A DNA stretch of 62,298 nt from positions 1-62,298 of the IMG/VR virus record IMGVR_UViG_3300012928_000004; one strand, given 5' to 3'. How positions within the stretch are numbered: position 1 is the stretch's first letter; each line of letters begins with the position of its first letter. A program made the position numbers and the translations under genes. This document shows, piece after piece, positions 359 to 44,931 of the stretch. This stretch comes from a virus (Duplodnaviria; Caudoviricetes). The notes beneath the pieces were generated by a model. That model saw nothing but the letters and a program-made list of their open reading frames with translations. It was not told the DNA's origin and did no database searches.

Positions 359-905
359 AGAATACATTCGTATCTATGACGATGTATTAGATTACAATGT
401 GTGTAAGAATGCTGTTGAATTATTCAAGCATGATGAAAACGTTGTTACACTGAAAGAACCACAGATGTCTTCTCTCAATCTGACCATTGAGTCAGAGCAA
501 AAGAAACATCCAGAGTGGACTGCTGTGCATAACCATTTACTACAAGTCATCTCTGCTGCTGCTCAACAGTATGCTATTGAGATGAAGATGGATAAGTATT
601 GGCCAAGAGAAAACAGTCTAGAGCAAATTAAGATGCATAAATACTGTGCCTCTTCTGGTGATAAGTTTGATTCTCACATTGATGTAGGAAACTACGAGTC
701 AGCACGTCGTTTTTGTGGATTCTTTTTGTATCTAAACGACGTTGACCAAGGTGGAGAAACTTTCTTTGACCACCTAGACTACAAAATTGCAGCAAAGTGT
801 GGTAGAATCGTGTTGTTCCCAAGCAACTGGATGTATCCCTACGCTGAATTGCCTGCTGAGTCTAACGACAAATACACTGTGACCACATATTTACATTATC
901 TATGA
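348..905 (+). CDS. 2OG-Fe(II) oxygenase (P4H-like), distal His apparently replaced by Tyr
   Basis: HID, FLYLNDVDQGGETFF, LFPSNWMYPY; start at ATG 348 overlapping uvsX stop. Confidence 0.8.
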   Translation: MDLKEYIRIYDDVLDYNVCKNAVELFKHDENVVTLKEPQMSSLNLTIESEQKKHPEWTAVHNHLLQVISAAAQQYAIEMKMDKYWPRENSLEQIKMHKYCASSGDKFDSHIDVGNYESARRFCGFFLYLNDVDQGGETFFDHLDYKIAAKCGRIVLFPSNWMYPYAELPAESNDKYTVTTYLHYL

Positions 906-2284
906 GTCTAAGAATTGAAGAGGTCGCCCTAAGTAAACTCATCCTCAACGATGAATACTGTAGGAAAGTCCTGCCCTTTGTCAAACCAGAATACTTTGAT
1001 GTCTTTAACCACAAAGTATTGTTTGAAACCCTTGCTGAATATGTCAGTGAGTTTGATGTAACACCAGAGCCTAATGCTCTGATGATTGAGGTTGAGAAGA
1101 GGAAGGATATTACTGAAGATATCTACAATGATATCACTAAATTTCTTGATAACTTAGACAGAGACCACTACAACGATGAGTGGTTGATTGATACCACAGA
1201 AAAGTGGTGCAAAGAAAGAGCAATTTATCTTGCCTTGATGGAGTCTGTAAAGATTGCTGACGGTCAAGACAAGACTCGCACTAAAGATGCTATTCCTAGT
1301 ATCATGTCTGATGCTCTTGGGGTTTGCTTTGATGACCATGTTGGACACGATTACTTACAAGACTCTGATGACCGCTATGATTTTTACCACAGGAAGGAAG
1401 AAAAGATTCCTTTCGACTTGGAATATTTTAACAAGATTACAAAAGGTGGGTTGCCTAATAAGACTCTCAATATCGCACTCGCTGGTACAGGTGTCGGCAA
1501 GTCTCTATTCATGTGCCACATGGCTAGTGCCTGCCTCTTGCAAGGGCGCAACGTTCTCTACATTACATGTGAAATGGCAGAGGAGAAGATTGCTGAACGA
1601 ATTGATGCAAACCTCCTCGACACCCCAATCCAAATCCTAAGCGACCCACTGTTTACTAAAGCAAAGTATCGTGCTAAGATGGATAAGTTGAGACAGAAGA
1701 CACAGGGTAAACTTGTTGTCAAGGAATACCCTACTGCTTCTGCTCACGTCGGTCACTTCGAGTCACTATTAAATGAGTTGTCCCTTAAAAAAGGGTTTGC
1801 CCCTGACATTATTTTTGTTGACTATCTCAACATCTGTGCTAGTAGTAGGTATAAAGGCACTATTGTAAACTCATATACCTATGTGAAAGCAATCGCTGAA
1901 GAGTTGCGTGGACTGGCAGGTAAAATGAATGTGCCTATCATGTCTGCAACTCAGACCACTCGCTCTGGATATGGTAACTCTAATGTAGAGATTACTGATA
2001 CCAGTGAATCGTTTGGTCTACCTGCTACCGCTGACCTTATGTTTGCTCTTATCTCTACAGAAGATATGGAGCAGTTAGGACAGATTATGGTCAAGCAGTT
2101 GAAGAATAGATATAATGACCCAACAATGTATAAGCGATTCGTTGTTGGTATTGACAGAGCGAAGATGAGACTGTATGATTGTGAGCAGTCAGCACAGGAA
2201 GACATCATCGACGCTGGGGATATCCCTGACAATCCTATATCGTATACCAAAACAAAACAATCATTCGACGGATTCAAAGTTTAA
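902..2284 (+). CDS. gp41: Replicative DNA helicase gp41
   Basis: Walker A AGTGVGKS, IFVDYLNIC, SATQTTR, SESFGLPATAD, KQLKNRY. Confidence 0.97.
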   Translation: MSLRIEEVALSKLILNDEYCRKVLPFVKPEYFDVFNHKVLFETLAEYVSEFDVTPEPNALMIEVEKRKDITEDIYNDITKFLDNLDRDHYNDEWLIDTTEKWCKERAIYLALMESVKIADGQDKTRTKDAIPSIMSDALGVCFDDHVGHDYLQDSDDRYDFYHRKEEKIPFDLEYFNKITKGGLPNKTLNIALAGTGVGKSLFMCHMASACLLQGRNVLYITCEMAEEKIAERIDANLLDTPIQILSDPLFTKAKYRAKMDKLRQKTQGKLVVKEYPTASAHVGHFESLLNELSLKKGFAPDIIFVDYLNICASSRYKGTIVNSYTYVKAIAEELRGLAGKMNVPIMSATQTTRSGYGNSNVEITDTSESFGLPATADLMFALISTEDMEQLGQIMVKQLKNRYNDPTMYKRFVVGIDRAKMRLYDCEQSAQEDIIDAGDIPDNPISYTKTKQSFDGFKV

Positions 2285-2942: not shown

Positions 2943-3544
2943 TGCAGAGCATCATCCCCTCTAACCTTGGATGGTTAGAGGATAAACTTAAACCCGAAGA
3001 GTCTAAACGACTGTGGGATTATATTAGCAAGGCTAAGGATGATGCTAAGTTAGAATTACTAGGGCATATGCACAGTAGTCTTTATCTAAATGATGAAGAC
3101 GACTGGTTTTTTAATAATGTATGTCCACGATTCATTCAAAGATATGGAGATGAGTTTGGTCCTTTCTCTCTTCCTACTGCACGTGCACATCCATACATGA
3201 TTGATAATCTATGGGTCAATGTACAGAAAGAGACAGAATATAATCCATTTCATAACCACTTTGGTGTCTACAGTTTTGTTATCTGGTTAAACATACCAAC
3301 AGACTGGAGAGAGCAGTATGCCTTATGTGATAACTCCAAGGGCACAGCATCTAATTTTGAATTTCACTTCACTAATATCCTAGGTGAGATTACATCTTAT
3401 CAGTATCAACTAGATAAGAGTTGGGAAGATACTATGTTATTCTTTCCGTCAAAATTAAACCATGGTGTCTATCCATATTTTAACTGTGGTGAGAATAGAA
3501 TCAGTGTATCTGGAAACCTATGTCTAAATACTATGGTACAGTAA
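2942..3544 (+). CDS. Putative 2OG-Fe(II) oxygenase (HxH type)
   Basis: WVN..EYNPFHNH, SFVIW, FFPSKLNHGV, RISVSGN. Confidence 0.8.
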   Translation: MQSIIPSNLGWLEDKLKPEESKRLWDYISKAKDDAKLELLGHMHSSLYLNDEDDWFFNNVCPRFIQRYGDEFGPFSLPTARAHPYMIDNLWVNVQKETEYNPFHNHFGVYSFVIWLNIPTDWREQYALCDNSKGTASNFEFHFTNILGEITSYQYQLDKSWEDTMLFFPSKLNHGVYPYFNCGENRISVSGNLCLNTMVQ

Positions 3545-3553
3545 ACCATAGAT

Positions 3554-4912
3554 ATGGCTAAGGCAAATACAGAAGACGAAATTCTGCTAGCCACTAACAA
3601 AGTCCTTAGAGATTATGACTCTGAGATAATGAGTGCGTCGTCAAAGATGACCCGCATTCGTATCATCAGTGGTGATAGAGTAAAGGCAAAGCAGTCAATT
3701 GAAAGTGCCCTATTACAAGAGCAGATTGAATACTTTGATGCTCTAAAACATCCTAACTATGCAAGAGGATGGCCAGTATCTAGTTTCTCTGGCACAGTAG
3801 TTGAATCTACACAAGGCACACTAACTGAATTTGTATATAAACAGAAAGGTGGTGGAGGAAGTGGTGCTGGTGCCGACATCACAAAGTTAACTGAGTCTGC
3901 ACAGTGTGTATTTGCTGCAGTAAGAGCAGTCACTGGTAAGTCTGATAGTGCTACAGTATTTGACGTTAGTAATATAAGGAAAGCATCTTCAAAGTTTGAT
4001 ATCCCTGCTGACATAGCAAGGAATGATTGTGAGAGAATAAGAAGAGACTTGACAGAAGATTGGATATCATCATGTGACAAGGGTGCCGCTAAGATAATTG
4101 AGAAGTTAGGTAAGAATTACATCTTCCATAGAGGGTCTAAGACTGTCGATAGAATCGAAGGTGCCTTCAAGAGAGTATCTAAGAAGGAAGGTATCAGGAT
4201 GGACCAAAACAAATGGTCTCCTGCTGACATATATCTAATCTCCTCTGCTTTTAATCCTGATTGTTTGGGTGAAGAAGAAAGCATACGAGGATTGAATCAG
4301 TGTATGCAAGAAAGAATACAAAAGAATGTTGCTATTGGTGTATCACTTAAGAAGATAACTGGTGGTGCAGTCATGAAACCTATTAACTTTGATAAGAAAC
4401 AAAAGACTGAGCAGAAGTTTTCTAGATTTGAAATGGGAAAGAAATCTTTAGACGGATACATACATTTCCAGTCTGGAGTTAAGATTCAGTTCAGGACTTT
4501 CGGTGGTAGTAAGTTAACTGGTTGGCAAGGTGAGGTCAAAGGTGCATCAGCAAACCAAGGAAAGATATCTCTTGGTCCTGTCAACCTCTTGATTAAACAA
4601 CATATAGGTGGAGCAAAACAAATTCCTACAACTGCAGCACGTATGGTGGTCAATAACAGAGACCAAGTAATTGCTGACATTAAGAAGGGTATGGCCAAGT
4701 TTGCAAAGGCATCACCTAATGAGTTAAAACTTATCTTTGAAGACCCTAAAATTATTACAGACCCATTCCTATACTCTAAGTGGCAGGCAGTCAAACTATT
4801 TGAATTGATTGACAGTCTCCCTAAGAATAAGAAGGACCAACTCTGTGAGGATTTCTTGCTGTATGCATCATCACAGTCAAGCATCTCAGCACCCTACTAC
4901 AAGCTTGAGTAG
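3554..4912 (+). CDS. Hypothetical protein, probable PD-(D/E)XK restriction-endonuclease-like fold
   Basis: 452-aa ORF; KLTESAQC helix, KWSPADIYL and IGVSLKK motifs; late promoter TAAATA at 3525-3530. Confidence 0.55.
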   Translation: MAKANTEDEILLATNKVLRDYDSEIMSASSKMTRIRIISGDRVKAKQSIESALLQEQIEYFDALKHPNYARGWPVSSFSGTVVESTQGTLTEFVYKQKGGGGSGAGADITKLTESAQCVFAAVRAVTGKSDSATVFDVSNIRKASSKFDIPADIARNDCERIRRDLTEDWISSCDKGAAKIIEKLGKNYIFHRGSKTVDRIEGAFKRVSKKEGIRMDQNKWSPADIYLISSAFNPDCLGEEESIRGLNQCMQERIQKNVAIGVSLKKITGGAVMKPINFDKKQKTEQKFSRFEMGKKSLDGYIHFQSGVKIQFRTFGGSKLTGWQGEVKGASANQGKISLGPVNLLIKQHIGGAKQIPTTAARMVVNNRDQVIADIKKGMAKFAKASPNELKLIFEDPKIITDPFLYSKWQAVKLFELIDSLPKNKKDQLCEDFLLYASSQSSISAPYYKLE

Positions 4913-4918
4913 GTTGCC

Positions 4919-4964
4919 AAACTGTCCACTCTGACTCGACACTGCCCCCATTCTGCCCTATAAT
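4919..4964 (+). promoter_or_regulatory. Early sigma70-type promoter with upstream AAACTGTCCAC box; probably leaderless mRNA
   Basis: TCGACA (4936-41), 17 bp, TATAAT (4959-64); ATG 6 nt later at 4971. Confidence 0.7.
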
Positions 4965-4970
4965 ATAGAC

Positions 4971-6155
4971 ATGGCAAAAAACACACACCTAGAGCACCTA
5001 GAAGATGACATCTTTAATGAAGGGTCTGCTGGTGCTACCAATGCTCTCAACTTCCTCAAAGCTCTCCGTGATATGCTTTCAGAGGGTAGTGGTGGGTCAA
5101 AAGTAAAGATTACTACTAAGTGGGATGGTGCCCCCGCTGTTATATGTGGTCGCGACCCAGAAAACGGGAAGTTTTTTGTTGGCACCAAGTCTGTATTTAA
5201 TAAGGTAGACGCTAAGATTGTATACACTGATGAGGATGCTGATAGACTTTACGGTGGGTCCACTGTAGGTAGCATTCTTAAGTTGTGTCTTAAGTATCTG
5301 AGTGACCTTCCTATCAAGGGTGTGCTACAGGGTGACCTGTTGTATAGTAAACCACTTAGTAAGATGAGTGGTGAGTATAAATTCAAACCAAACACCATCA
5401 CCTATGTGTTAGATGCTAAGTCGCCTATGGGTATGAAGGTAGGTGCTAGTAAGATGGGCATTGTATTTCACACCACATATACTGGTAACAGTATGTCATC
5501 CCTGTCTGCAGGTTTCGGTGTAGATGTATCCAATCTACAGGGTGTTAAGAATGTAGCAGTATTCTCTTCATCCTTTGACAATATCGGTGGTGCTGCTAAC
5601 CTGACACCTGCTGAGAAGTCTAAACTAAACAGTGTGATTCTATCTGCAGAGAAGTCACTTGCCTCTGGTGGTAAATTCCTTGACACTATCCAAGGTGGTA
5701 AGGGACCCTTCAGTCTACCTGCATTGTTTAAGGTATACTTCAACCAGATTATTAGAGGTGGTAAGATTCCTACCTCGTCATCACAGATGGCAAATGGTTT
5801 CAAACAATTCGTTAGCACTAAGTATACCACTGAGATTGAGAAGAAAAAGACTCTCAAATCTAAGTTAGATTGGACGGAAAGAAAAGCAGAGTCGCTTAAA
5901 TACCTAAATACTAATAGTAATATGATGAATTCTGCACTTGATGGTTTCAAAAACCTGATGGATGCTAAAGTTTTAATCATAAATAAACTCATACAAATCA
6001 AAAGTATTGGGACATTCCTTGAGACAGAGAATGGATTACGTGCCACAAACCCAGAAGGCTTCGTTGCTATCAGGGATGGTGCGGCACTTAAACTTGTAGA
6101 TAGACTGGAATTCTCCAGAGCTAATTTCACTGTTGCTAAAGATTGGGGTAAATGA
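4971..6155 (+). CDS. Conserved cyanophage protein with ATP-dependent ligase/nucleotidyltransferase motifs (RNA-ligase-like)
   Basis: TKWDGAP (I), LQGDL (III), IVFH (IIIa), PEGFV (IV), ALKLV (V) in the correct order. Confidence 0.65.
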   Translation: MAKNTHLEHLEDDIFNEGSAGATNALNFLKALRDMLSEGSGGSKVKITTKWDGAPAVICGRDPENGKFFVGTKSVFNKVDAKIVYTDEDADRLYGGSTVGSILKLCLKYLSDLPIKGVLQGDLLYSKPLSKMSGEYKFKPNTITYVLDAKSPMGMKVGASKMGIVFHTTYTGNSMSSLSAGFGVDVSNLQGVKNVAVFSSSFDNIGGAANLTPAEKSKLNSVILSAEKSLASGGKFLDTIQGGKGPFSLPALFKVYFNQIIRGGKIPTSSSQMANGFKQFVSTKYTTEIEKKKTLKSKLDWTERKAESLKYLNTNSNMMNSALDGFKNLMDAKVLIINKLIQIKSIGTFLETENGLRATNPEGFVAIRDGAALKLVDRLEFSRANFTVAKDWGK

Positions 6156-7273
6156 AATTTCTAGAATTTATTAAAGAGGCAGCGGCACAAGCTGCAAAGA
6201 CAAAGAAACCTTCCACCTCATCGAAGGGTAAATCTGCTGCGGATAAAAAACTTGATGATAAGCATGTTGCTATTACTTTCGGCAGGTTTAATCCTCCCCA
6301 CGCTGGTCATGGTAAACTTCTTGATGCGGTTAAAGCACATGGAGGAGACTCAGGAAACTACAGAATCTATCCCTCAAGGTCACAAGACCACAAGAAGAAT
6401 CCCTTAAGTGCTCAACAAAAAGTTGACCACATGAGGAAGATGTTTAAGCAACATAAGGACGCAATACAAAACAACGAGGCACACAGGAATGTGTTTGATG
6501 TGTTACGTGACCTTCACGATGAAGGACATGAGCATGTTACTATGGTTGTAGGAGATGACCGAGTAAAAGAGTTTGAAGGACTCACTAACAAATACAACGG
6601 TATCCACTACGACTTCAAGAGTATTAATATTAAGTCGGCAGGTGCACGGTCGAATGATTCTGAGGACCCTATCGAGAATCTATCAGCATCTAAGATGCGT
6701 AAACATGCACAGTCTGGAGACCACGACTCATTCCACGGTGGCACTGGTGGTTACAAGGACTCCAAGAAACTGATGGCAGATGTCATCGCAGGCATGACAC
6801 CACCACCCAAGGCAAAGAAACCTAAGAAGGGTGAGTCTGTCCATGAATCTGTATGGGAGTATGCTCCTAAACTGGACTTTGATTCCTTCCGTGACTTCTA
6901 TATGCTTAACCATATCTTTAAGGTAGGTGCACTTGTAGAGCATGACGACAGTGGTATTCGTGGTAACATTGTCCACAGAGGACCAAACTATATTATTATG
7001 AAAGATGGATACGGTGGAGAGCATCGTGCATGGTTACAACATGTGTCTGAAGTAGCACAGTTAGGACCATCAGACCTCAGTCACCAACAAGAAGTTGCTG
7101 CTGACACTACTAAAGACCAGAGTAACTACTCTGCTGATGACGGTAGTGGTAACACATGGAAAGCAGGCACTGATAGATACAGAGAAGCACTACAGAATCT
7201 GACACCTGGTCAAAAACCTGTTAAATTCTCTGACTTTAATGCTCGCATTAGAAAAACAGCTTCAACTAAATAG
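6152..7273 (+). CDS. Cytidylyltransferase-like (HxGH) nucleotidyltransferase with capsid-targeting-like N-terminus
   Basis: TFGRFNPPHAGH, KNPL, MVVGDDR, SASKMR; N-terminus MKFLEFIKE. Confidence 0.85.
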   Translation: MKFLEFIKEAAAQAAKTKKPSTSSKGKSAADKKLDDKHVAITFGRFNPPHAGHGKLLDAVKAHGGDSGNYRIYPSRSQDHKKNPLSAQQKVDHMRKMFKQHKDAIQNNEAHRNVFDVLRDLHDEGHEHVTMVVGDDRVKEFEGLTNKYNGIHYDFKSINIKSAGARSNDSEDPIENLSASKMRKHAQSGDHDSFHGGTGGYKDSKKLMADVIAGMTPPPKAKKPKKGESVHESVWEYAPKLDFDSFRDFYMLNHIFKVGALVEHDDSGIRGNIVHRGPNYIIMKDGYGGEHRAWLQHVSEVAQLGPSDLSHQQEVAADTTKDQSNYSADDGSGNTWKAGTDRYREALQNLTPGQKPVKFSDFNARIRKTASTK

Positions 7274-7298
7274 TATCGTATAGATTTACTTACAACCA

Positions 7299-8174
7299 AT
7301 GACGTTAGAAATGCTGGTCTCTGCAGCACTGATGAACTATACTCAGCAGGAGCAGGGCAAAATTCTACAAGCTATCGAAGAGGATAGACTTCCTAACTCC
7401 ACCCGTCTACAGGAGGGTGTATACAAAGTTATGGAAGCATTCGATGCATATGAACCCGTCGTTGAGGGGTATGCTGGATTCAAGATTGACCGTGAGTCAG
7501 TCGCGAAGAAAAAGAAAGAGCATGGTGACGACCGTAATGTTGGTCGTGTTGTGCAATCAGGTGGTGATTCAATGCTTATCACTGGTAAGAAAGCAGATGG
7601 ACGCTACATCGTTGTCGGTAAGAAAGGTGAGAAGTCTGCACGTGACGCAGCAGACCTTGGGGTAACCAAGAAAGAAGAAGTCATCGGTATTGACATTGAA
7701 GACCTCCATACACAAATGCTTGAGGGCATGAAGCAAGCACGTGCAAACGTTGGTGCAAGCAAGTGTTGGGATGGTTATAAGGCTAAGGGCACTAAGAAGA
7801 AGGGCGACAAAGAAGTCCCTAACTGTGTCAAAGAAGAAGAAATTGAAGAGCGTTACAAAGGTAAGCACGGACAATCTGAGAAAGAGTATCAAGACGGTCG
7901 CTCACAAGGTGGCAAGATGGTCTCTGGTGACTCTAAGATGAGTGGTGCAAAATACTCTCACGGTAGCAGAGTATCTGATGGTGGCGCTGGTCCTCAACCT
8001 GCTGGCGGTTCTAAGAAACCAAAAGCACAAGGTAAGATGGACAACTGGGGCAGAAATGAATTGAAAATGCGTAAAGCAAATCTCAAAGCAAAGAATGAGG
8101 ACTTTATAAATAAACTGTCTACCTCAGGATTGTTTACTGAGGATGAGCTACAGAAAATGGGAGAGATGGAATGA
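7299..8174 (+). CDS. Hypothetical protein, likely internal head/virion protein
   Basis: Late promoter TAAATA 7267-72; CWDGYK..KKKG..VPNCVKE motif; Lys/Gly-rich; several hydrophobic-X-E sites. Confidence 0.6.
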   Translation: MTLEMLVSAALMNYTQQEQGKILQAIEEDRLPNSTRLQEGVYKVMEAFDAYEPVVEGYAGFKIDRESVAKKKKEHGDDRNVGRVVQSGGDSMLITGKKADGRYIVVGKKGEKSARDAADLGVTKKEEVIGIDIEDLHTQMLEGMKQARANVGASKCWDGYKAKGTKKKGDKEVPNCVKEEEIEERYKGKHGQSEKEYQDGRSQGGKMVSGDSKMSGAKYSHGSRVSDGGAGPQPAGGSKKPKAQGKMDNWGRNELKMRKANLKAKNEDFINKLSTSGLFTEDELQKMGEME

Positions 8175-10886: not shown

Positions 10887-11827
10887 ATAGATACAAACAC
10901 GTTAAGCGTGGTTTATACAACTTTAGATGCCCCTACTGTGGTGATTCTCAGAAGAATCGCACGAAAGCAAGGGGTTATTTTTTTCTAAAGAAGACAGAAT
11001 ACATTTACAAGTGTCACAACTGTGGTGTTGGTAGGTCCCTAGCAAACTTCTTAAAGGAGCAAGCGGTGGATTTGTATGACCAATTCTTACTTGAAAAGTA
11101 TCAGCAGGGAATGACTGGGAAAGGTCGTCATACACCTGCACCAAAGATTCCGTCATCAAAACCACACTTCAATAAGACAAAAGACTTGCAGCAGATTTCA
11201 AGTCTAAATAATGAGCATCCAGCAAAGCAATATCTACTAGACAGGAAGATACCTGAGGACCAACTCGGTAGATTCTATTACGTTGACAAGTTTAAGAGTT
11301 GGGTTAACACTCGTAAACCCACCTTCGACAATCTGCAAAACGACAGACCTAGAATTATTATCCCATTGATTGATGCGGATGGTAAATGGTTTGGAGTCCA
11401 AGGGAGGTCCATGTCTCCTAAGTCTCCTCTCAGATACATATCAATTATGTTTGAGGATAAACTTAAACTATTTGGACAAGACCAAGTAAACCCAGAGGAG
11501 ACTGTTTATGTCACAGAAGGACCATTCGACAGTACTTTCATTAGACAAGCTGTTGCTATGTGTGGTAGCGATGTTGACCACCGCAGTTTACCTTATAGGT
11601 CTAGGGTCTGGGTCTTCGACAACGAACCTAGGAATAGACAAATCGTGCAGAGACTCGATTCAGCAATCACAAACGGGGAGACCGTGGTTATATGGCCAAA
11701 GACCATAAAGCACAAGGATATCAATGATATGGTCTTGGCAGGACTGAGACCAGATGATATAATTAAAAAGAATACCTACCAAGGGTTAGAAGCACAAATT
11801 AAATTTACCGATTGGAAAAAAGTATGA
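10838..11827 (+). CDS. gp61: DNA primase gp61
   Basis: Zn finger CPYCGDS...CHNC; TOPRIM VTEGPFDS, FDNE, KDINDM. Confidence 0.95.
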   Translation: MDYVEDKYIKFLSARLDRYKHVKRGLYNFRCPYCGDSQKNRTKARGYFFLKKTEYIYKCHNCGVGRSLANFLKEQAVDLYDQFLLEKYQQGMTGKGRHTPAPKIPSSKPHFNKTKDLQQISSLNNEHPAKQYLLDRKIPEDQLGRFYYVDKFKSWVNTRKPTFDNLQNDRPRIIIPLIDADGKWFGVQGRSMSPKSPLRYISIMFEDKLKLFGQDQVNPEETVYVTEGPFDSTFIRQAVAMCGSDVDHRSLPYRSRVWVFDNEPRNRQIVQRLDSAITNGETVVIWPKTIKHKDINDMVLAGLRPDDIIKKNTYQGLEAQIKFTDWKKV

Positions 11828-14154
11828 GCGACATTAGTGTTGTTAAGCGTAATGGGGTGGTCGCAGACCTCAATCTAGAGAAAGTACATAAGATGGTAGA
11901 GATGGCCTGCCGTGACCTTGGCGGTGTGTCAGAGTCGCACGTAGAAATGAATGCCAATCTACAATTCTTCGATGGTATTAGGACACAAGACATCCAAGAA
12001 ATTCTTATTAAGTCTGCTAATGACTTGATTTCTTTGGAGACACCTAACTACCAATTTGTTGCTGCACGTCTTCTCCTATTCGGACTTCGTAAACAAGTCT
12101 TTGGAGAGCATCCAGACGATGCTCCACCGCTTCTAGAGCATGTGCAATCATGTGTAGATGAAGGTGTATATGATGAGAGTCTTATTAAACTATATTCCGA
12201 TGAGGAATGGGAAGAGATTGACTCTTACATTGACTATGACCGTGACTATATGTTTACATATGCTGGTCTAAGACAGGTTGCTGATAAATATCTCGTACAA
12301 GATCGCAGCAATGGTCGTCTGTATGAGACTCCTCAGCAGATGTATATCATGATCGCAGCTACTCTCTTTCAAAATTACACACAAGAGTATAGACTCGATT
12401 ATGTAAAACGCTATTATGACGCAATCTCAAAACACAAAATCAACATCCCAACACCAGTCATGGCAGGGGTCAGGACGCCCCTTAGACAATTTGCTAGCTG
12501 TGTGCTTGTGGATGTTGATGACACCCTCGATTCTATCTTTAGCAGTGACATGGCTATTGGCTACTATGTTGCTCAAAGGGCTGGCATCGGTATCAACGCA
12601 GGTAGAATCAGGGGCATCAACAGTAAAATCAGAGGTGGAGAGGTTCAACACACAGGTGTTGTCCCCTTCCTCAAAAAGTTTGAGTCAACTGTCAGATGCT
12701 GCACTCAAAACGGTATCCGAGGTGGGTCAGCGACTGTCCACTTTCCGATCTGGCATCAAGAAATCGAAGACATCATCGTCCTCAAAAACAACAAAGGCAC
12801 GGAAGACAACCGAGTCAGAAAACTCGACTACAGTATCCAACTAAGCAAGTTATTTTATGAAAGGTTTATTTCTAACAAGGACATTTCACTCTTCAGTCCT
12901 CACGATGTCCCTGGTCTTTATGACGCTTTCGGGACTGATGAGTTTGATGATTTGTATGTCCGTTACGAAACAAATACTTCAGTCCCAAGAAGCACCATCG
13001 GTGCTCAAGAATTAATTCTTGCACTACTTAAAGAGAGAGCAGAGACAGGTCGTCTCTATCTAATGAATATTGACCACTGTAATACTCACTCCTCTTTCAA
13101 AGACAAAGTAAACATGAGTAACCTCTGTCAGGAGATTACTCTACCTACTGACCCTATCAGACACATTGATGATGATGGTGGTGAGATTGCTCTGTGCATT
13201 CTCTCTGCTATTAATGTTGGTAAACTTACATCTAACCTTGATGAGTTGGATAACCTATGTGACCTTGCAGTTAGAGGACTGGAAGAGTTGATTGATTACC
13301 AAGAGTATCCTGTTGCTGCTGCAAAACGTAGCACTCTAGCACGTCGCTCACTTGGTATTGGTTTCATTGGTCTTGCTCATTACCTTGCTAAGAATGGTGT
13401 AAAATATGACTCACAAGAGGCATGGGACTTGACTCATAGACTCACTGAATCATTCCAGTATCACCTTCTTAAAGCATCAAATCAAATTGCACAAGAGAAA
13501 GGAGCATGTGAAGCATTCCATCGTACAAAGTATATCGATGGACTTCTACCAATCGATACATATAAGAAGGACGTAGATCAGATTACAAACGAACCTCTTC
13601 ATTATGATTGGGATAGTCTTAGGTCATCTATCGAGGAGCATGGACTCAGGCACAGCACTCTGTCCGCACAAATGCCATCGGAATCTAGTTCCGTTGTGTC
13701 AAACGCAACCAATGGAATCGAACCTCCTCGCGACTACTTGTCCGTTAAGAAATCAAAGAAGGGACCTCTTAAGCAAATTGTTCCTCAATTTAATTCACTG
13801 AAAAATAATTACACACTACTCTGGGACATGCCTTCTAACGAAGGTTACATCAAGATTGTAGCAGTGATGCAAAAGTTTTTTGACCAAGGTATCAGTGGTA
13901 ACTGGTCCTACAATCCAGAAAATTATAATAATAACGAAGTGCCTGTGTCTGTAATGGCACAAGACCTACTTAATACTTACAAATACGGTTGGAAAACCTC
14001 ATACTATCAAAATACATACGATGCCAAGAAAGATATCGATGAGCCTGCCCATCCAATCGGATGGAAAGATGAAGTGCCAGACACTGAAGCTCTTGTAAAC
14101 GATATCCTTTACGGTGCAGAATCGGAGGAAGATTGTGATGGTTGCAAAGTCTGA
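11824..14154 (+). CDS. nrdA: Ribonucleotide reductase class Ia alpha subunit
   Basis: ATP cone VVKRNG; QFASC, SNLCQEI, MPSESSS, GIEP; C-terminal CDGC; no intein. Confidence 0.97.
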   Translation: MSDISVVKRNGVVADLNLEKVHKMVEMACRDLGGVSESHVEMNANLQFFDGIRTQDIQEILIKSANDLISLETPNYQFVAARLLLFGLRKQVFGEHPDDAPPLLEHVQSCVDEGVYDESLIKLYSDEEWEEIDSYIDYDRDYMFTYAGLRQVADKYLVQDRSNGRLYETPQQMYIMIAATLFQNYTQEYRLDYVKRYYDAISKHKINIPTPVMAGVRTPLRQFASCVLVDVDDTLDSIFSSDMAIGYYVAQRAGIGINAGRIRGINSKIRGGEVQHTGVVPFLKKFESTVRCCTQNGIRGGSATVHFPIWHQEIEDIIVLKNNKGTEDNRVRKLDYSIQLSKLFYERFISNKDISLFSPHDVPGLYDAFGTDEFDDLYVRYETNTSVPRSTIGAQELILALLKERAETGRLYLMNIDHCNTHSSFKDKVNMSNLCQEITLPTDPIRHIDDDGGEIALCILSAINVGKLTSNLDELDNLCDLAVRGLEELIDYQEYPVAAAKRSTLARRSLGIGFIGLAHYLAKNGVKYDSQEAWDLTHRLTESFQYHLLKASNQIAQEKGACEAFHRTKYIDGLLPIDTYKKDVDQITNEPLHYDWDSLRSSIEEHGLRHSTLSAQMPSESSSVVSNATNGIEPPRDYLSVKKSKKGPLKQIVPQFNSLKNNYTLLWDMPSNEGYIKIVAVMQKFFDQGISGNWSYNPENYNNNEVPVSVMAQDLLNTYKYGWKTSYYQNTYDAKKDIDEPAHPIGWKDEVPDTEALVNDILYGAESEEDCDGCKV

Positions 14155-44498: not shown

Positions 44499-44931
44499 GA
44501 GTTATTCGGGAAAGTATAGACCAACCAATAGAGGAAAGTATAAGGGCGACCCTACAAATATTATTTATAGGAGTTTGTGGGAAAAAAAGTTTATGGTCTG
44601 GTGTGATAAGAATGAAAACGTCATAGAGTGGGGAAGTGAAGAGATTATCATTCCATACATTAGTCCTGTTGATCGTAGGGTACACCGCTATTTCCCCGAT
44701 TTCTACGTTAGAGCACGGACTAGAAACGGCAGGTTTGAGAAGTACATTATTGAGGTTAAACCGAAGGCACAGTGTGCACCGCCCAAGAGACCCAAAAGGC
44801 AGACTCGTAAATACATAACGGAGGTAAAGACTTACGGTGTCAATCAGGCAAAATGGAAAGCAGCGACTGAATACTGTAAAGACCGTAACATGAAATTTCT
44901 CATTCTCACAGAAAAGGAGTTAAACGTGTGA
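44497..44931 (+). CDS. gp4: Head completion nuclease gp4
   Basis: KYKGD..NIIYRSLWE, WGSEE, RYFPDF, IEVKP, NQAKW. Confidence 0.92.
   Translation: MSYSGKYRPTNRGKYKGDPTNIIYRSLWEKKFMVWCDKNENVIEWGSEEIIIPYISPVDRRVHRYFPDFYVRARTRNGRFEKYIIEVKPKAQCAPPKRPKRQTRKYITEVKTYGVNQAKWKAATEYCKDRNMKFLILTEKELNV
44541..44548 (-). promoter_or_regulatory. Late promoter for gp48/gp53 inside gp4
   Basis: TATAAATA on the minus strand ~43 nt upstream of the gp48 ATG. Confidence 0.65.

Follow-up and report, generated by a model that had tools for sequence, protein, structure and literature searches.

A DUF6267 protein of T4-like marine phages as a probable ligase-like nucleotidyltransferase with a conserved HxGH partner

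Introduction

The polynucleotide ligases that most resemble the protein described here belong to the covalent (lysine) nucleotidyltransferase superfamily and combine a nucleotidyltransferase domain with differing accessory features. The Rnl5-type RNA ligase of Naegleria gruberi (NgrRnl) carries an N-terminal OB domain; T4 Rnl1 (gp63), which is grouped with Trl1 in PF09511 and works with Pnkp, has an all-helical domain after motif V; Rnl2-type ligases (e.g., REL1 of Trypanosoma and T4 Rnl2; PF09414) have a C-terminal domain past motif V; and the minimal ATP-dependent DNA ligases (e.g., Chlorella virus ligase and T4 gp30; PF01068) have an OB domain and motif VI. Here we analyze a protein of 394 amino acids encoded by an open reading frame (ORF) with an ATG start at positions 4971 to 6155 of the + strand of a 62,298-nucleotide (nt) stretch of viral DNA (the window), which is the whole of IMG/VR record IMGVR_UViG_3300012928_000004 (Duplodnaviria; Caudoviricetes), a fragment estimated to be ~34% complete. 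The gene content of the window is that of a T4-like marine myovirus, and the ORF is followed by a gene for an HxGH nucleotidyltransferase, referred to below as the partner (Table 1).

The protein is a member of Pfam family DUF6267 (PF19782; E 4.1e-125; 418.5 bits, where the cut-off is 27), with residues 4-390 matching profile positions 1-376 of 376, i.e., the full length of the profile, and it also matches phrog_455 (2.2e-117). Among cultured phages, Cyanophage P-TIM40 and Synechococcus phage S-SZBM1 carry the closest relatives, each at ~62% identity, and a tblastn search found the protein in 470 phage records, nearly all of them from Synechococcus or Prochlorococcus phages, with other matches including Pelagibacter phage HTVC008M and Methylophilales phage Melnitz. 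The family is large, as all 8,000 of the 8,000 candidates scored from a 90%-identity collection passed E ≤ 1e-5 and 2,606 representatives from a 50%-identity library were recovered at E ≤ 1e-3, and it is absent from all 14 control cellular genomes. The gene is annotated as hypothetical only, a search of the ESM Atlas with the protein returned unnamed viral clusters only, and a full-text literature search found no paper naming the family. In the parts of three cyanophage papers that deal with the neighboring gene, that gene is called an auxiliary 'cytidylyltransferase' with no known role, and the DUF6267 gene is not discussed (PMC9146016, PMC12801897, PMC7238727).

Conserved Motifs

When the window protein is aligned with 104 representatives at 34-57% identity (105 sequences in total; alignment A1), 15 columns are invariant (H9, K50, D52, G53, G60, F69, K73, D122, Y145, H167, E362, G363, K374, F381, and N385). 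An earlier note on this DNA, made from the letters alone, had read six strings in the protein (TKWDGAP, FVGTKS, VLQGDL, IVFH, PEGFV, and ALKLV) as the motif series of ligases and capping enzymes. All six strings are present in the claimed order, and the motif lysine, the EG pair, and the second lysine on which that reading depended (K50, E362/G363, and K374) are kept in 105 of 105 homologs. A lone KxDG string could be accidental, but the conservation of the set across the alignment places it beyond chance. Within this set, the lysine predicted to be nucleotidylated is K50 (codon 5118-5120). The motif Ia candidate parallels, by eye, the K117-S118-K119 triplet that is invariant in the Rnl1 family and lies 18-20 residues past the motif I lysine of that family. 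The placement of motif IIIa at IVFH (residues 164-167) stands only in part, since the string is present and H167 is invariant, but the upstream element FKPNTITY is an equally good candidate and the assignment is uncertain (F138, P140, N141, Y145, G163, H167, T168, Y170, and G172 are all conserved in ≥95% of the sequences). At the N terminus, the HLEHLED element may replace the leaving-group-orienting element of other ligases.

The short DUF6267 forms of the S-RIM8 type (~298 amino acids; 80 IMG/VR loci), which lack ~90 residues, mostly from the helical region, keep all of these invariant motif residues. Selection on catalysis can be argued because the catalytic-type residues are invariant despite wide divergence and shortening, a finding that bears directly on the explanation that DUF6267 is a non-enzymatic or structural protein in which the ligase-like shape and motifs persist as relics. 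The moderate fold scores described below would fit such a protein, but the invariance of these residues over 105 divergent sequences, and in forms shortened by ~90 residues, counts against it. The main text and tables reporting the 30-protein virion proteome of S-SZBM1 do not name the homolog of that phage, which also counts against a structural role (PMC9146016). We regard a purely structural role as extremely improbable.

Table 1. Positions of the DUF6267 gene, its conserved elements, its partner, and other features of the window.
Feature	Position	Strand	Remarks
DUF6267 gene	4971..6155	+	
N-terminal conserved element, HLEHLED	4986..5006	+	start of long helix (10-38); H9 105/105, H6 103/105, E11 98/105, D12 90/105
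Motif I, TKWDGAP	5115..5135	+	residues 49-55; K50, D52, G53 invariant (105/105)
Motif Ia candidate, FVGTKS	5175..5192	+	residues 69-74; K73 invariant
Motif III candidate, VLQGDL	5322..5339	+	residues 118-123, on strand 118-125; D122 invariant; Q120, G121 ≥95%
Motif IIIa candidates, FKPNTITY and GIVFHTTYTG	5382..5471	+	residues 138-145 and 163-172; both strongly conserved
Helical module	5583..6005	+	~140 residues (~205-345), between N-terminal strands and motif IV; model helices 213-343
Motif IV, PEGFV	6051..6065	+	residues 361-365; E362, G363 invariant
Motif V, ALKLV	6084..6098	+	residues 372-376; K374 invariant; R378 104/105
Putative sigma-70-like promoter site, TCGACA-17 nt-TATAAT	4936..4964	+	11/12 matches; ends 6 nt before DUF6267 ATG
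HxGH (CTP_transf_like) nucleotidyltransferase (partner)	6152..7273	+	373 amino acids; PF01467, E 1.7e-9
Leader on HxGH partner, MKFLEFIKE	6152..6178	+	resembles T4 capsid-targeting sequence
phrog_1462 protein, function unknown	3554..4912	+	452 amino acids; 7.9e-66
Gly/Lys-rich protein	7299-8174	+	291 amino acids; phrog_27523, 1.3e-70
gp41-type helicase	902-2284		
NrdA (ribonucleotide reductase large subunit)	11812-14154		
MazG			
Two 2OG-Fe(II) oxygenases			
Sigma-70-like sites	2151, 4936, 11735, 16852, 19274, 21031, 22958, 30090, 53070, 55557	+	

Predicted Fold and Structural Neighbors

The AlphaFold2 model of the DUF6267 protein, with A1 as input, has a mean predicted local distance difference test score (pLDDT) of 94.2 and a predicted TM-score (pTM) of 0.91. 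Its layout comprises a helix (10-38), a beta-rich region (45-199), an all-helical region (213-343), four last strands carrying motifs IV and V, and a short helix. Within the helical module, N258 and K333 are conserved in ≥90% of the A1 sequences, and R262 and K333 are invariant in a further alignment (A3); in fold searches, the module draws only generic helical-bundle matches.

A search of 48,161 chains, carried out independently of Foldseek, placed NgrRnl (5cot) at the top (Z 8.3 over 184 residues, with a root-mean-square deviation (rmsd) of 4.0) and REL1 second (Z 7.8 over 192 residues). All 15 rows aligning at least 160 residues were polynucleotide ligases (Z 5.7-8.3), including T4 Rnl1 (Z 6.8), Trl1 (Z 6.3-6.8), archaeal Rnl3 (Z 6.5-6.6), T4 Rnl2 (Z 6.0-6.6), and five rows of DNA ligases (Z 5.7-6.1), and the remaining 35 rows were short helical matches (48-133 residues) to the model helices. 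A second look, at the top 1,000 chains from Foldseek, returned ligases in 47 of 50 rows, with NgrRnl reaching Z 8.6. Among viral predicted structures (BFVD), 21 matches were found at E ≤ 0.001, the named ones being 'Uncharacterized', 'Cytidyltransferase-like', and one 'NrdB'; the next named matches of another kind were 'RNA ligase' entries, from E 1.1e-3. These scores are moderate, and the case for a ligase fold is persuasive to us because the matches are solely ligases and coincide with the invariant catalytic-type residues.

Most of what the earlier note had said of the fold is borne out by the model. The long helical insertion that it described is real, the model being helical over residues 213-343, and it was correct that no OB domain follows, as the protein stops 20 residues past motif V. 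The note had staked its reading on a ligase-like predicted fold, and outside its helical part the model finds no structural matches other than RNA and DNA ligases. Together, the invariant motif residues and the fold support its assignment of the protein to the covalent (lysine) nucleotidyltransferase, or ligase-like, superfamily, as a divergent member. The note did not mention the Pfam family, the HxGH partner, or the capsid-targeting-like leader of many relatives, which is missing from this copy.

Comparison with individual ligase types points to a distinct variant. The best match, NgrRnl (5cot, 6vt0, and others), reaches Z 8.3-8.6 over 181-185 residues with an rmsd of 3.7-4.0 Å. The alignment covers NgrRnl residues 143-339, which form its nucleotidyltransferase domain, and the distances from the motifs to the end appear to agree (E312 and K326 to 339 in NgrRnl, with numbers taken from PDB titles, and E362 and K374 to 388 in DUF6267). 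However, the two proteins are only 12% identical and have no Pfam or profile-level link, the OB domain of the Rnl5 type is missing from DUF6267, in which residues 1-44 hold a single helix (10-38), and DUF6267 has an inserted helical module of ~140 residues before motif IV. T4 Rnl1 and Trl1 (Z 6.8-7.5 and 6.0-7.2, respectively, over both searches) form the sole family with a sequence bridge to DUF6267, but the helical module of DUF6267 lies before motif IV instead of after motif V, the window protein does not match PF09511, and its partner is an HxGH nucleotidyltransferase and not Pnkp. Among Rnl2-type enzymes, REL1 reaches Z 7.6-7.8 and T4 Rnl2 Z 6.0-6.6 over 177-192 residues, whereas DUF6267 lacks both a PF09414 match and a C-terminal domain past motif V. 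The minimal DNA ligases (Chlorella virus ligase and T4 gp30) share the same superfamily fold (Z 5.8-5.9) and possibly the same role, given that related phages have no other ligase, yet neither an OB domain, motif VI, nor a PF01068 match is found in the DUF6267 protein, and the window holds no PF01068 match. Similarly, PF01653, which represents the NAD+-dependent ligase LigA, is not matched by the window protein at E ≤ 1. DUF6267 is thus set apart from the Rnl5, Rnl1/Trl1, Rnl2, and DNA ligase types by its accessory features and would be a new variant inside a known superfamily.

Sequence Links to Known Ligases

At the level of sequence, the bridge to known ligases is thin. No ligase model is matched by the window protein, for which a Pfam scan at E ≤ 1 returned PF19782 only, and 4 of the 105 DUF6267 members touch PF09511 (RNA_lig_T4_1; best E 6e-4). 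For comparison, T4 Rnl1, Rnl2, and gp30 were used together with a 39-sequence Rnl1 alignment, in which the invariant residues include K99, D101, G102, K117-S118-K119, E159, E227, G228, K240, and K242. Profile alignment with hhalign places the DUF6267 segment PEGFVAI..KL onto IEGYVAV..FKI of T4 Rnl1, i.e., onto motifs IV-V (E227 and G228; K240 and K242), with weak P values (0.03-0.04 when whole profiles were compared and 0.0026 with the C-terminal piece). The DUF6267 profile gave no meaningful alignment with T4 Rnl2 or with the T4 DNA ligase gp30, and a hidden Markov model of Rnl1 run against 151 DUF6267 sequences reached a best E of 0.0099. By eye, the order of elements (KxDG, K, an acid, P-N/x-N..Y, EG, and K) appears to be common to DUF6267 and Rnl1.

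Proposed Strand-Sealing Activity

Based on the model and the conserved residues, we consider it reasonably likely that DUF6267 represents an unrecognized branch of covalent nucleotidyltransferases (polynucleotide ligases), nearest to the ATP-dependent RNA ligases in shape and probably sealing strands. In such an enzyme, an enzyme-nucleoside monophosphate (NMP) intermediate would arise when Lys50 attacks the alpha-phosphate of a nucleotide (probably ATP), with D122, E362/G363, and K374/R378 holding the ribose and phosphates. The NMP would then be passed to a 5'-phosphate end, and attack by a 3'-OH would seal the strand. The part played in other ligases by OB or C-terminal domains would fall to the helical module (N258, R262, and K333) and the N-terminal HLEHxED helix. 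The enzyme would act alongside its co-translated HxGH nucleotidyltransferase, joined in some phages by a P-loop kinase.

Several observations weigh against this interpretation. The fold scores are moderate, and models without a true match typically reach a best Z of 7-8 per search tool; Foldseek against the PDB found nothing at E ≤ 0.001, with DNA and RNA ligases among the weak rows. A sequence search of the PDB and a profile search with the 105 sequences returned low-complexity helical matches and no ligase. The hhalign comparison with the Rnl1 family aligns 20-38 columns at a probability below 12%, and the N-terminal half of DUF6267, with motifs I-IIIa, is not aligned with that family. Motifs Ia, III, and IIIa were placed by order and conservation only, and the motifs depart from what we take to be the ligase consensus, in that KxDG is followed by Pro and not by Arg, the motif III acid is Asp and not Glu, and motif IV has no closing Lys. 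The protein has neither an OB domain nor motif VI. No kinase, phosphatase or phosphoesterase, or second ligase was found in the 62-kb window of this incomplete record. Lastly, to our knowledge HxGH nucleotidyltransferases have no role in strand sealing, and the conserved pairing is therefore not explained by a plain ligase model.

Other Ligases in Related Phages

A census of the complete genomes of S-SZBM1, S-RIM8, HTVC008M, and Melnitz-3 found no match to PF01068, PF09511, PF09414, or PF01653 at E ≤ 0.01, while the T4 control in the same census returned gp30, Rnl1, and Rnl2. DUF6267 is therefore the sole ligase-like protein detectable in these four complete relatives. This gap raises the explanation that DUF6267 is the missing DNA ligase of these phages, replacing T4 gp30 in the sealing of Okazaki or recombination nicks, with the helical module clamping the duplex. 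The location of the gene inside a block for replication and nucleotide metabolism (gp41-type helicase, MazG, and NrdA in the window, and UvsX upstream of DUF6267 in relatives) is consistent with such a role, as are a host-type promoter in place of a late motif (see below), the lack of PF01068 and PF01653 ligases in all four genomes, and the presence of DNA ligases among the structural matches (Z 5.5-6.4). On the other hand, RNA ligases outscore DNA ligases in those searches (8.6 versus at most 6.4), the protein lacks an OB domain, and a leader resembling a capsid-targeting sequence, which a replication enzyme would not need, is present in 44 of 105 relatives. Fusion to an HxGH enzyme or a kinase is likewise atypical of DNA replication, and a host NAD-dependent ligase could serve the phages, as it does for T4 gene 30 mutants. 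Such a replicative role is possible and as live a rival as the RNA/tRNA-repair and anti-defence readings, although we rate it as unlikely.

The HxGH Partner, Kinases, and Fusions

The start of the partner gene overlaps the stop of the DUF6267 gene (ATGA), and in all 65 IMG/VR loci with at least 1,200 nt downstream, the HxGH gene starts no more than 60 nt past the end of the DUF6267 gene, although these loci, being from related cyanophages, do not count as independent samples. The gene order is kept in S-SZBM1 and S-RIM8, and the two genes lie one or two genes apart in HTVC008M and Melnitz. Fusions of the two proteins, in both orders, account for at least 12 of the 32 representatives of ≥440 amino acids; one confirmed fusion is a 591-residue family representative (P0123), and a protein of S-PM2 in BFVD, also of 591 amino acids, is annotated with a cytidyltransferase-like domain. 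A complex prediction for the window DUF6267 and HxGH proteins gave a score of 0.00, which provides no answer and was counted for neither side.

Across aligned homologs, the partner has invariant FGRFNPPxxGH and SASKMR motifs. Its nearest named models are adenylyltransferases for nicotinamide mononucleotide and nicotinic acid mononucleotide (NMN/NaMN), e.g., the NMNAT model TIGR00482 (6e-7, far below the cut-off), and the partner in relatives matches phrog_3462 (2e-4); neither a single-sequence nor a profile search found a PDB match. The partner also contains a linker rich in Lys, Ala, and Ser and a small C-terminal module (~247-306) that is conserved and matches phrog_22379 and phrog_4808 as well. 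Related modules are found again in the next ORF and in the long enzymes of HTVC008M and Melnitz, the latter two carrying DUF5824 in addition.

The strict conservation of a partner closest to NMN/NaMN adenylyltransferases suggests a further explanation, in which DUF6267 carries out lysyl-NMP chemistry without sealing strands (e.g., in a pathway for an NAD-like cofactor together with the partner or a kinase, or in nucleotidylation of proteins or nucleic acid ends). A kinase combined with an HxGH adenylyltransferase is the layout of NadR, and the atypical ligase motifs of DUF6267 would also be accommodated. The occurrence of partner enzymes in virions points in the same direction (PMC9146016, PMC10665884). 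Against this explanation, the structural neighbors of DUF6267 are all polynucleotide ligases, and the basic residues R262 and K333 of the helical module would suit binding of nucleic acid. In addition, we know of no member of the superfamily in cofactor synthesis, and non-sealing chemistry seems to us decidedly unlikely.

Kinases occur at some of these loci. In a metagenomic family member (P0263), a P-loop kinase of the AAA_33/Zeta type is fused N-terminal to DUF6267, and in HTVC008M a P-loop kinase gene (L087:6718-7377), whose product is 45% identical to the P0263 kinase, lies between the DUF6267 and HxGH genes. The HTVC008M kinase matches Zeta_toxin/AAA_33 better than it matches polynucleotide kinase (phrog_505, weak, 8.5e-8). 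These kinases bear on the explanation that follows the earlier note, namely that DUF6267 is a ligase for RNA or tRNA repair, acting against anticodon nucleases or other RNases of the host on the model of T4 Pnkp and Rnl1. RNA ligases, including T4 Rnl1 and fungal Trl1, are the top structural matches, the sole sequence bridge is to the Rnl1 family, and a kinase with a weak polynucleotide kinase match is fused or adjacent in some relatives, all of which count in favor of this explanation. Phage RNA ligases are described as usually accompanying polynucleotide kinases (PMC7824862). However, the window contains no kinase or phosphoesterase, neither a 2',3'-cyclic phosphodiesterase nor a 3'-phosphatase was seen in the neighborhoods inspected, the kinase is closer to Zeta_toxin/AAA_33 than to polynucleotide kinase, and DUF6267 lacks the tRNA-binding domain found at the C terminus of Rnl1. 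Repair of host-cleaved RNA is a reading that we rate as unlikely, on a par with the replicative one.

Putative Capsid-Targeting Leaders and Virions

T4 internal proteins and Alt enter the capsid by means of an N-terminal targeting sequence; IPII and IPIII begin with MKTYQEFIAE and IPI with MKTFKEF. When the DUF6267 family was compared with the leader pattern M-K-x-F/Y-x-x-F-L/I-x-E, 44 of 105 members were found to carry a leader resembling these sequences before the conserved KNxHLEH (e.g., MKTFKHFVTE and MLTFKEFLLE). The window protein starts with MAKNTHLEH, without a leader, and is one of 14 of the 105 members in which the leader is shorter than nine residues, and 11 of 11 aligned short cyanophage forms start directly with MPNKHLEH. 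The HxGH partner of the window does bear a leader (Table 1), and all aligned HxGH partners start with MKKFSAFLxEA or a similar sequence.

In longer, fused DUF6267 forms (P0127, P0135, P0140, P0153, P0197, P0206, and P0258), the segment before KNxHLEH often ends in L/I/M-x-E (e.g., ESVMEAEG and LLIEATKK). These ends resemble T4 prohead-protease sites, which suggests that cleavage may free the DUF6267 domain. The N-terminal extensions of seven longer homologs that were compared cannot be aligned with each other, and these forms therefore share no common extra domain.

Published virion proteomes are consistent with this pattern. In the S-SZBM1 proteome, the HxGH partner SSZBM1_140 and the product of the next gene, SSZBM1_139, were detected, while SSZBM1_141, which is the DUF6267 homolog according to our mapping, and SSZBM1_142 do not appear by name in the main text or tables (PMC9146016). 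A cytidylyltransferase was likewise detected in S-CREM2 virions, and the authors call such enzymes frequent in cyanophage virions (PMC10665884).

Taken further, DUF6267 and HxGH could form a two-enzyme sealing system, in which the partner makes or regenerates a dinucleotide cofactor (NAD+ or a relative) for the ligase. Such a system would be the only strand-joining activity of marine T4-like phages; it would be independent of the host ligase, robust to defences that deplete NAD+, and, in many phages, preloaded in the capsid and injected. We offer this arrangement as speculation and regard it as improbable.

Putative Promoter and Expression

The earlier note had also proposed that the gene is expressed from a host-type promoter on a leaderless mRNA. 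A host-type promoter just before the start codon is plausible, given the excess of such sites in the window, their restriction to the + strand, and the -10 spacing kept in two relatives. At a threshold of at least 11 of 12 matches, the window contains 10 sigma-70-like sites, all on the + strand (Table 1), compared with a mean of 1.5 in 30 shuffles, and these are probably early phage promoters used by the host RNA polymerase. TATAAT-N6-ATG is kept in two 90%-identical relatives (L085 and L086), but the -35 element is not. Judging from the spacing, the mRNA of the DUF6267 gene is possibly leaderless.

No T4-type late motif TATAAATA was found before the DUF6267-HxGH operon. Elsewhere in the window, this motif occurs on the + strand at 8105, 8804, 10030, 21184, 25574, and 30199 and on the - strand at 44562, and those at 8105, 8804, 10030, 25574, and 30199 lie 24-66 nt ahead of an ORF start; the total of seven, versus 3.4 expected, is not significant alone. 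Hence the window copy of DUF6267 is probably expressed in the cell, under a sigma-70, or host-type, promoter. Metatranscriptome contigs of a ~94%-identical relative, from runs of three studies, cover positions 3500-7300, which demonstrates presence in RNA libraries only; the contigs are uninformative on transcription start, strand, or level, and nothing can be read from the contig break at 4994/4998 in one run. In the RNA-library contigs of this relative from three runs, a base is left out at 6776 and a G is added after 6778, a compensating pair inside the HxGH gene that alters one or two codons.

Neighboring Genes

The gene upstream of DUF6267 encodes a phrog_1462 protein with 1,241 homologs at E ≤ 0.001, and a homolog of it lies upstream of DUF6267 in 39 of the 69 loci with room for one; the link between the two genes is positional only. 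Its invariant residues include E114, W170, R193, D225, N248, and S264-L265-K266. In the model of this protein (pLDDT 87), residues 5-99 alone find a match, to an RsfS/Pol-beta-like core (Z 5-7.6). An identity as a nucleotidyltransferase was rejected, as residues 5-99 contain no conserved acidic residues, and PF10127 (RlaP) was also ruled out, as there is no Pfam match. An identity as a nuclease was rejected as well, the Atlas hints to HpaII and HaeIII types (0.83-0.84) being at the level of a lead. Downstream of the partner, the Gly/Lys-rich protein is 54% identical, in the best BLASTP segment, to the 457-residue SSZBM1_139 reported from S-SZBM1 virions (PMC9146016), and it has a 42-residue block in common with the Melnitz nucleotidyltransferase.

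Conclusions

The window is distinctive in that a DUF6267 copy that lacks a leader and is preceded by a putative promoter stands beside a partner that bears a leader. The cyanophages and pelagiphages of the T4-like type rank among the most abundant marine viruses, and the DUF6267 gene is present in nearly all of those inspected. If DUF6267 is a ligase, it would fill a long-noted gap in these phages, four complete relatives of which have no other recognizable DNA or RNA ligase, and it would represent a new architecture, in which the OB domain is missing, a helical module is inserted, and the HxGH partner is obligatory. A small, abundant, and thermally diverse family of ligases could also serve as a source of reagents. 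For the biology of the phages themselves, the conserved pairing, together with a leader on one or both of the proteins, points to an uncharacterized function early in infection.

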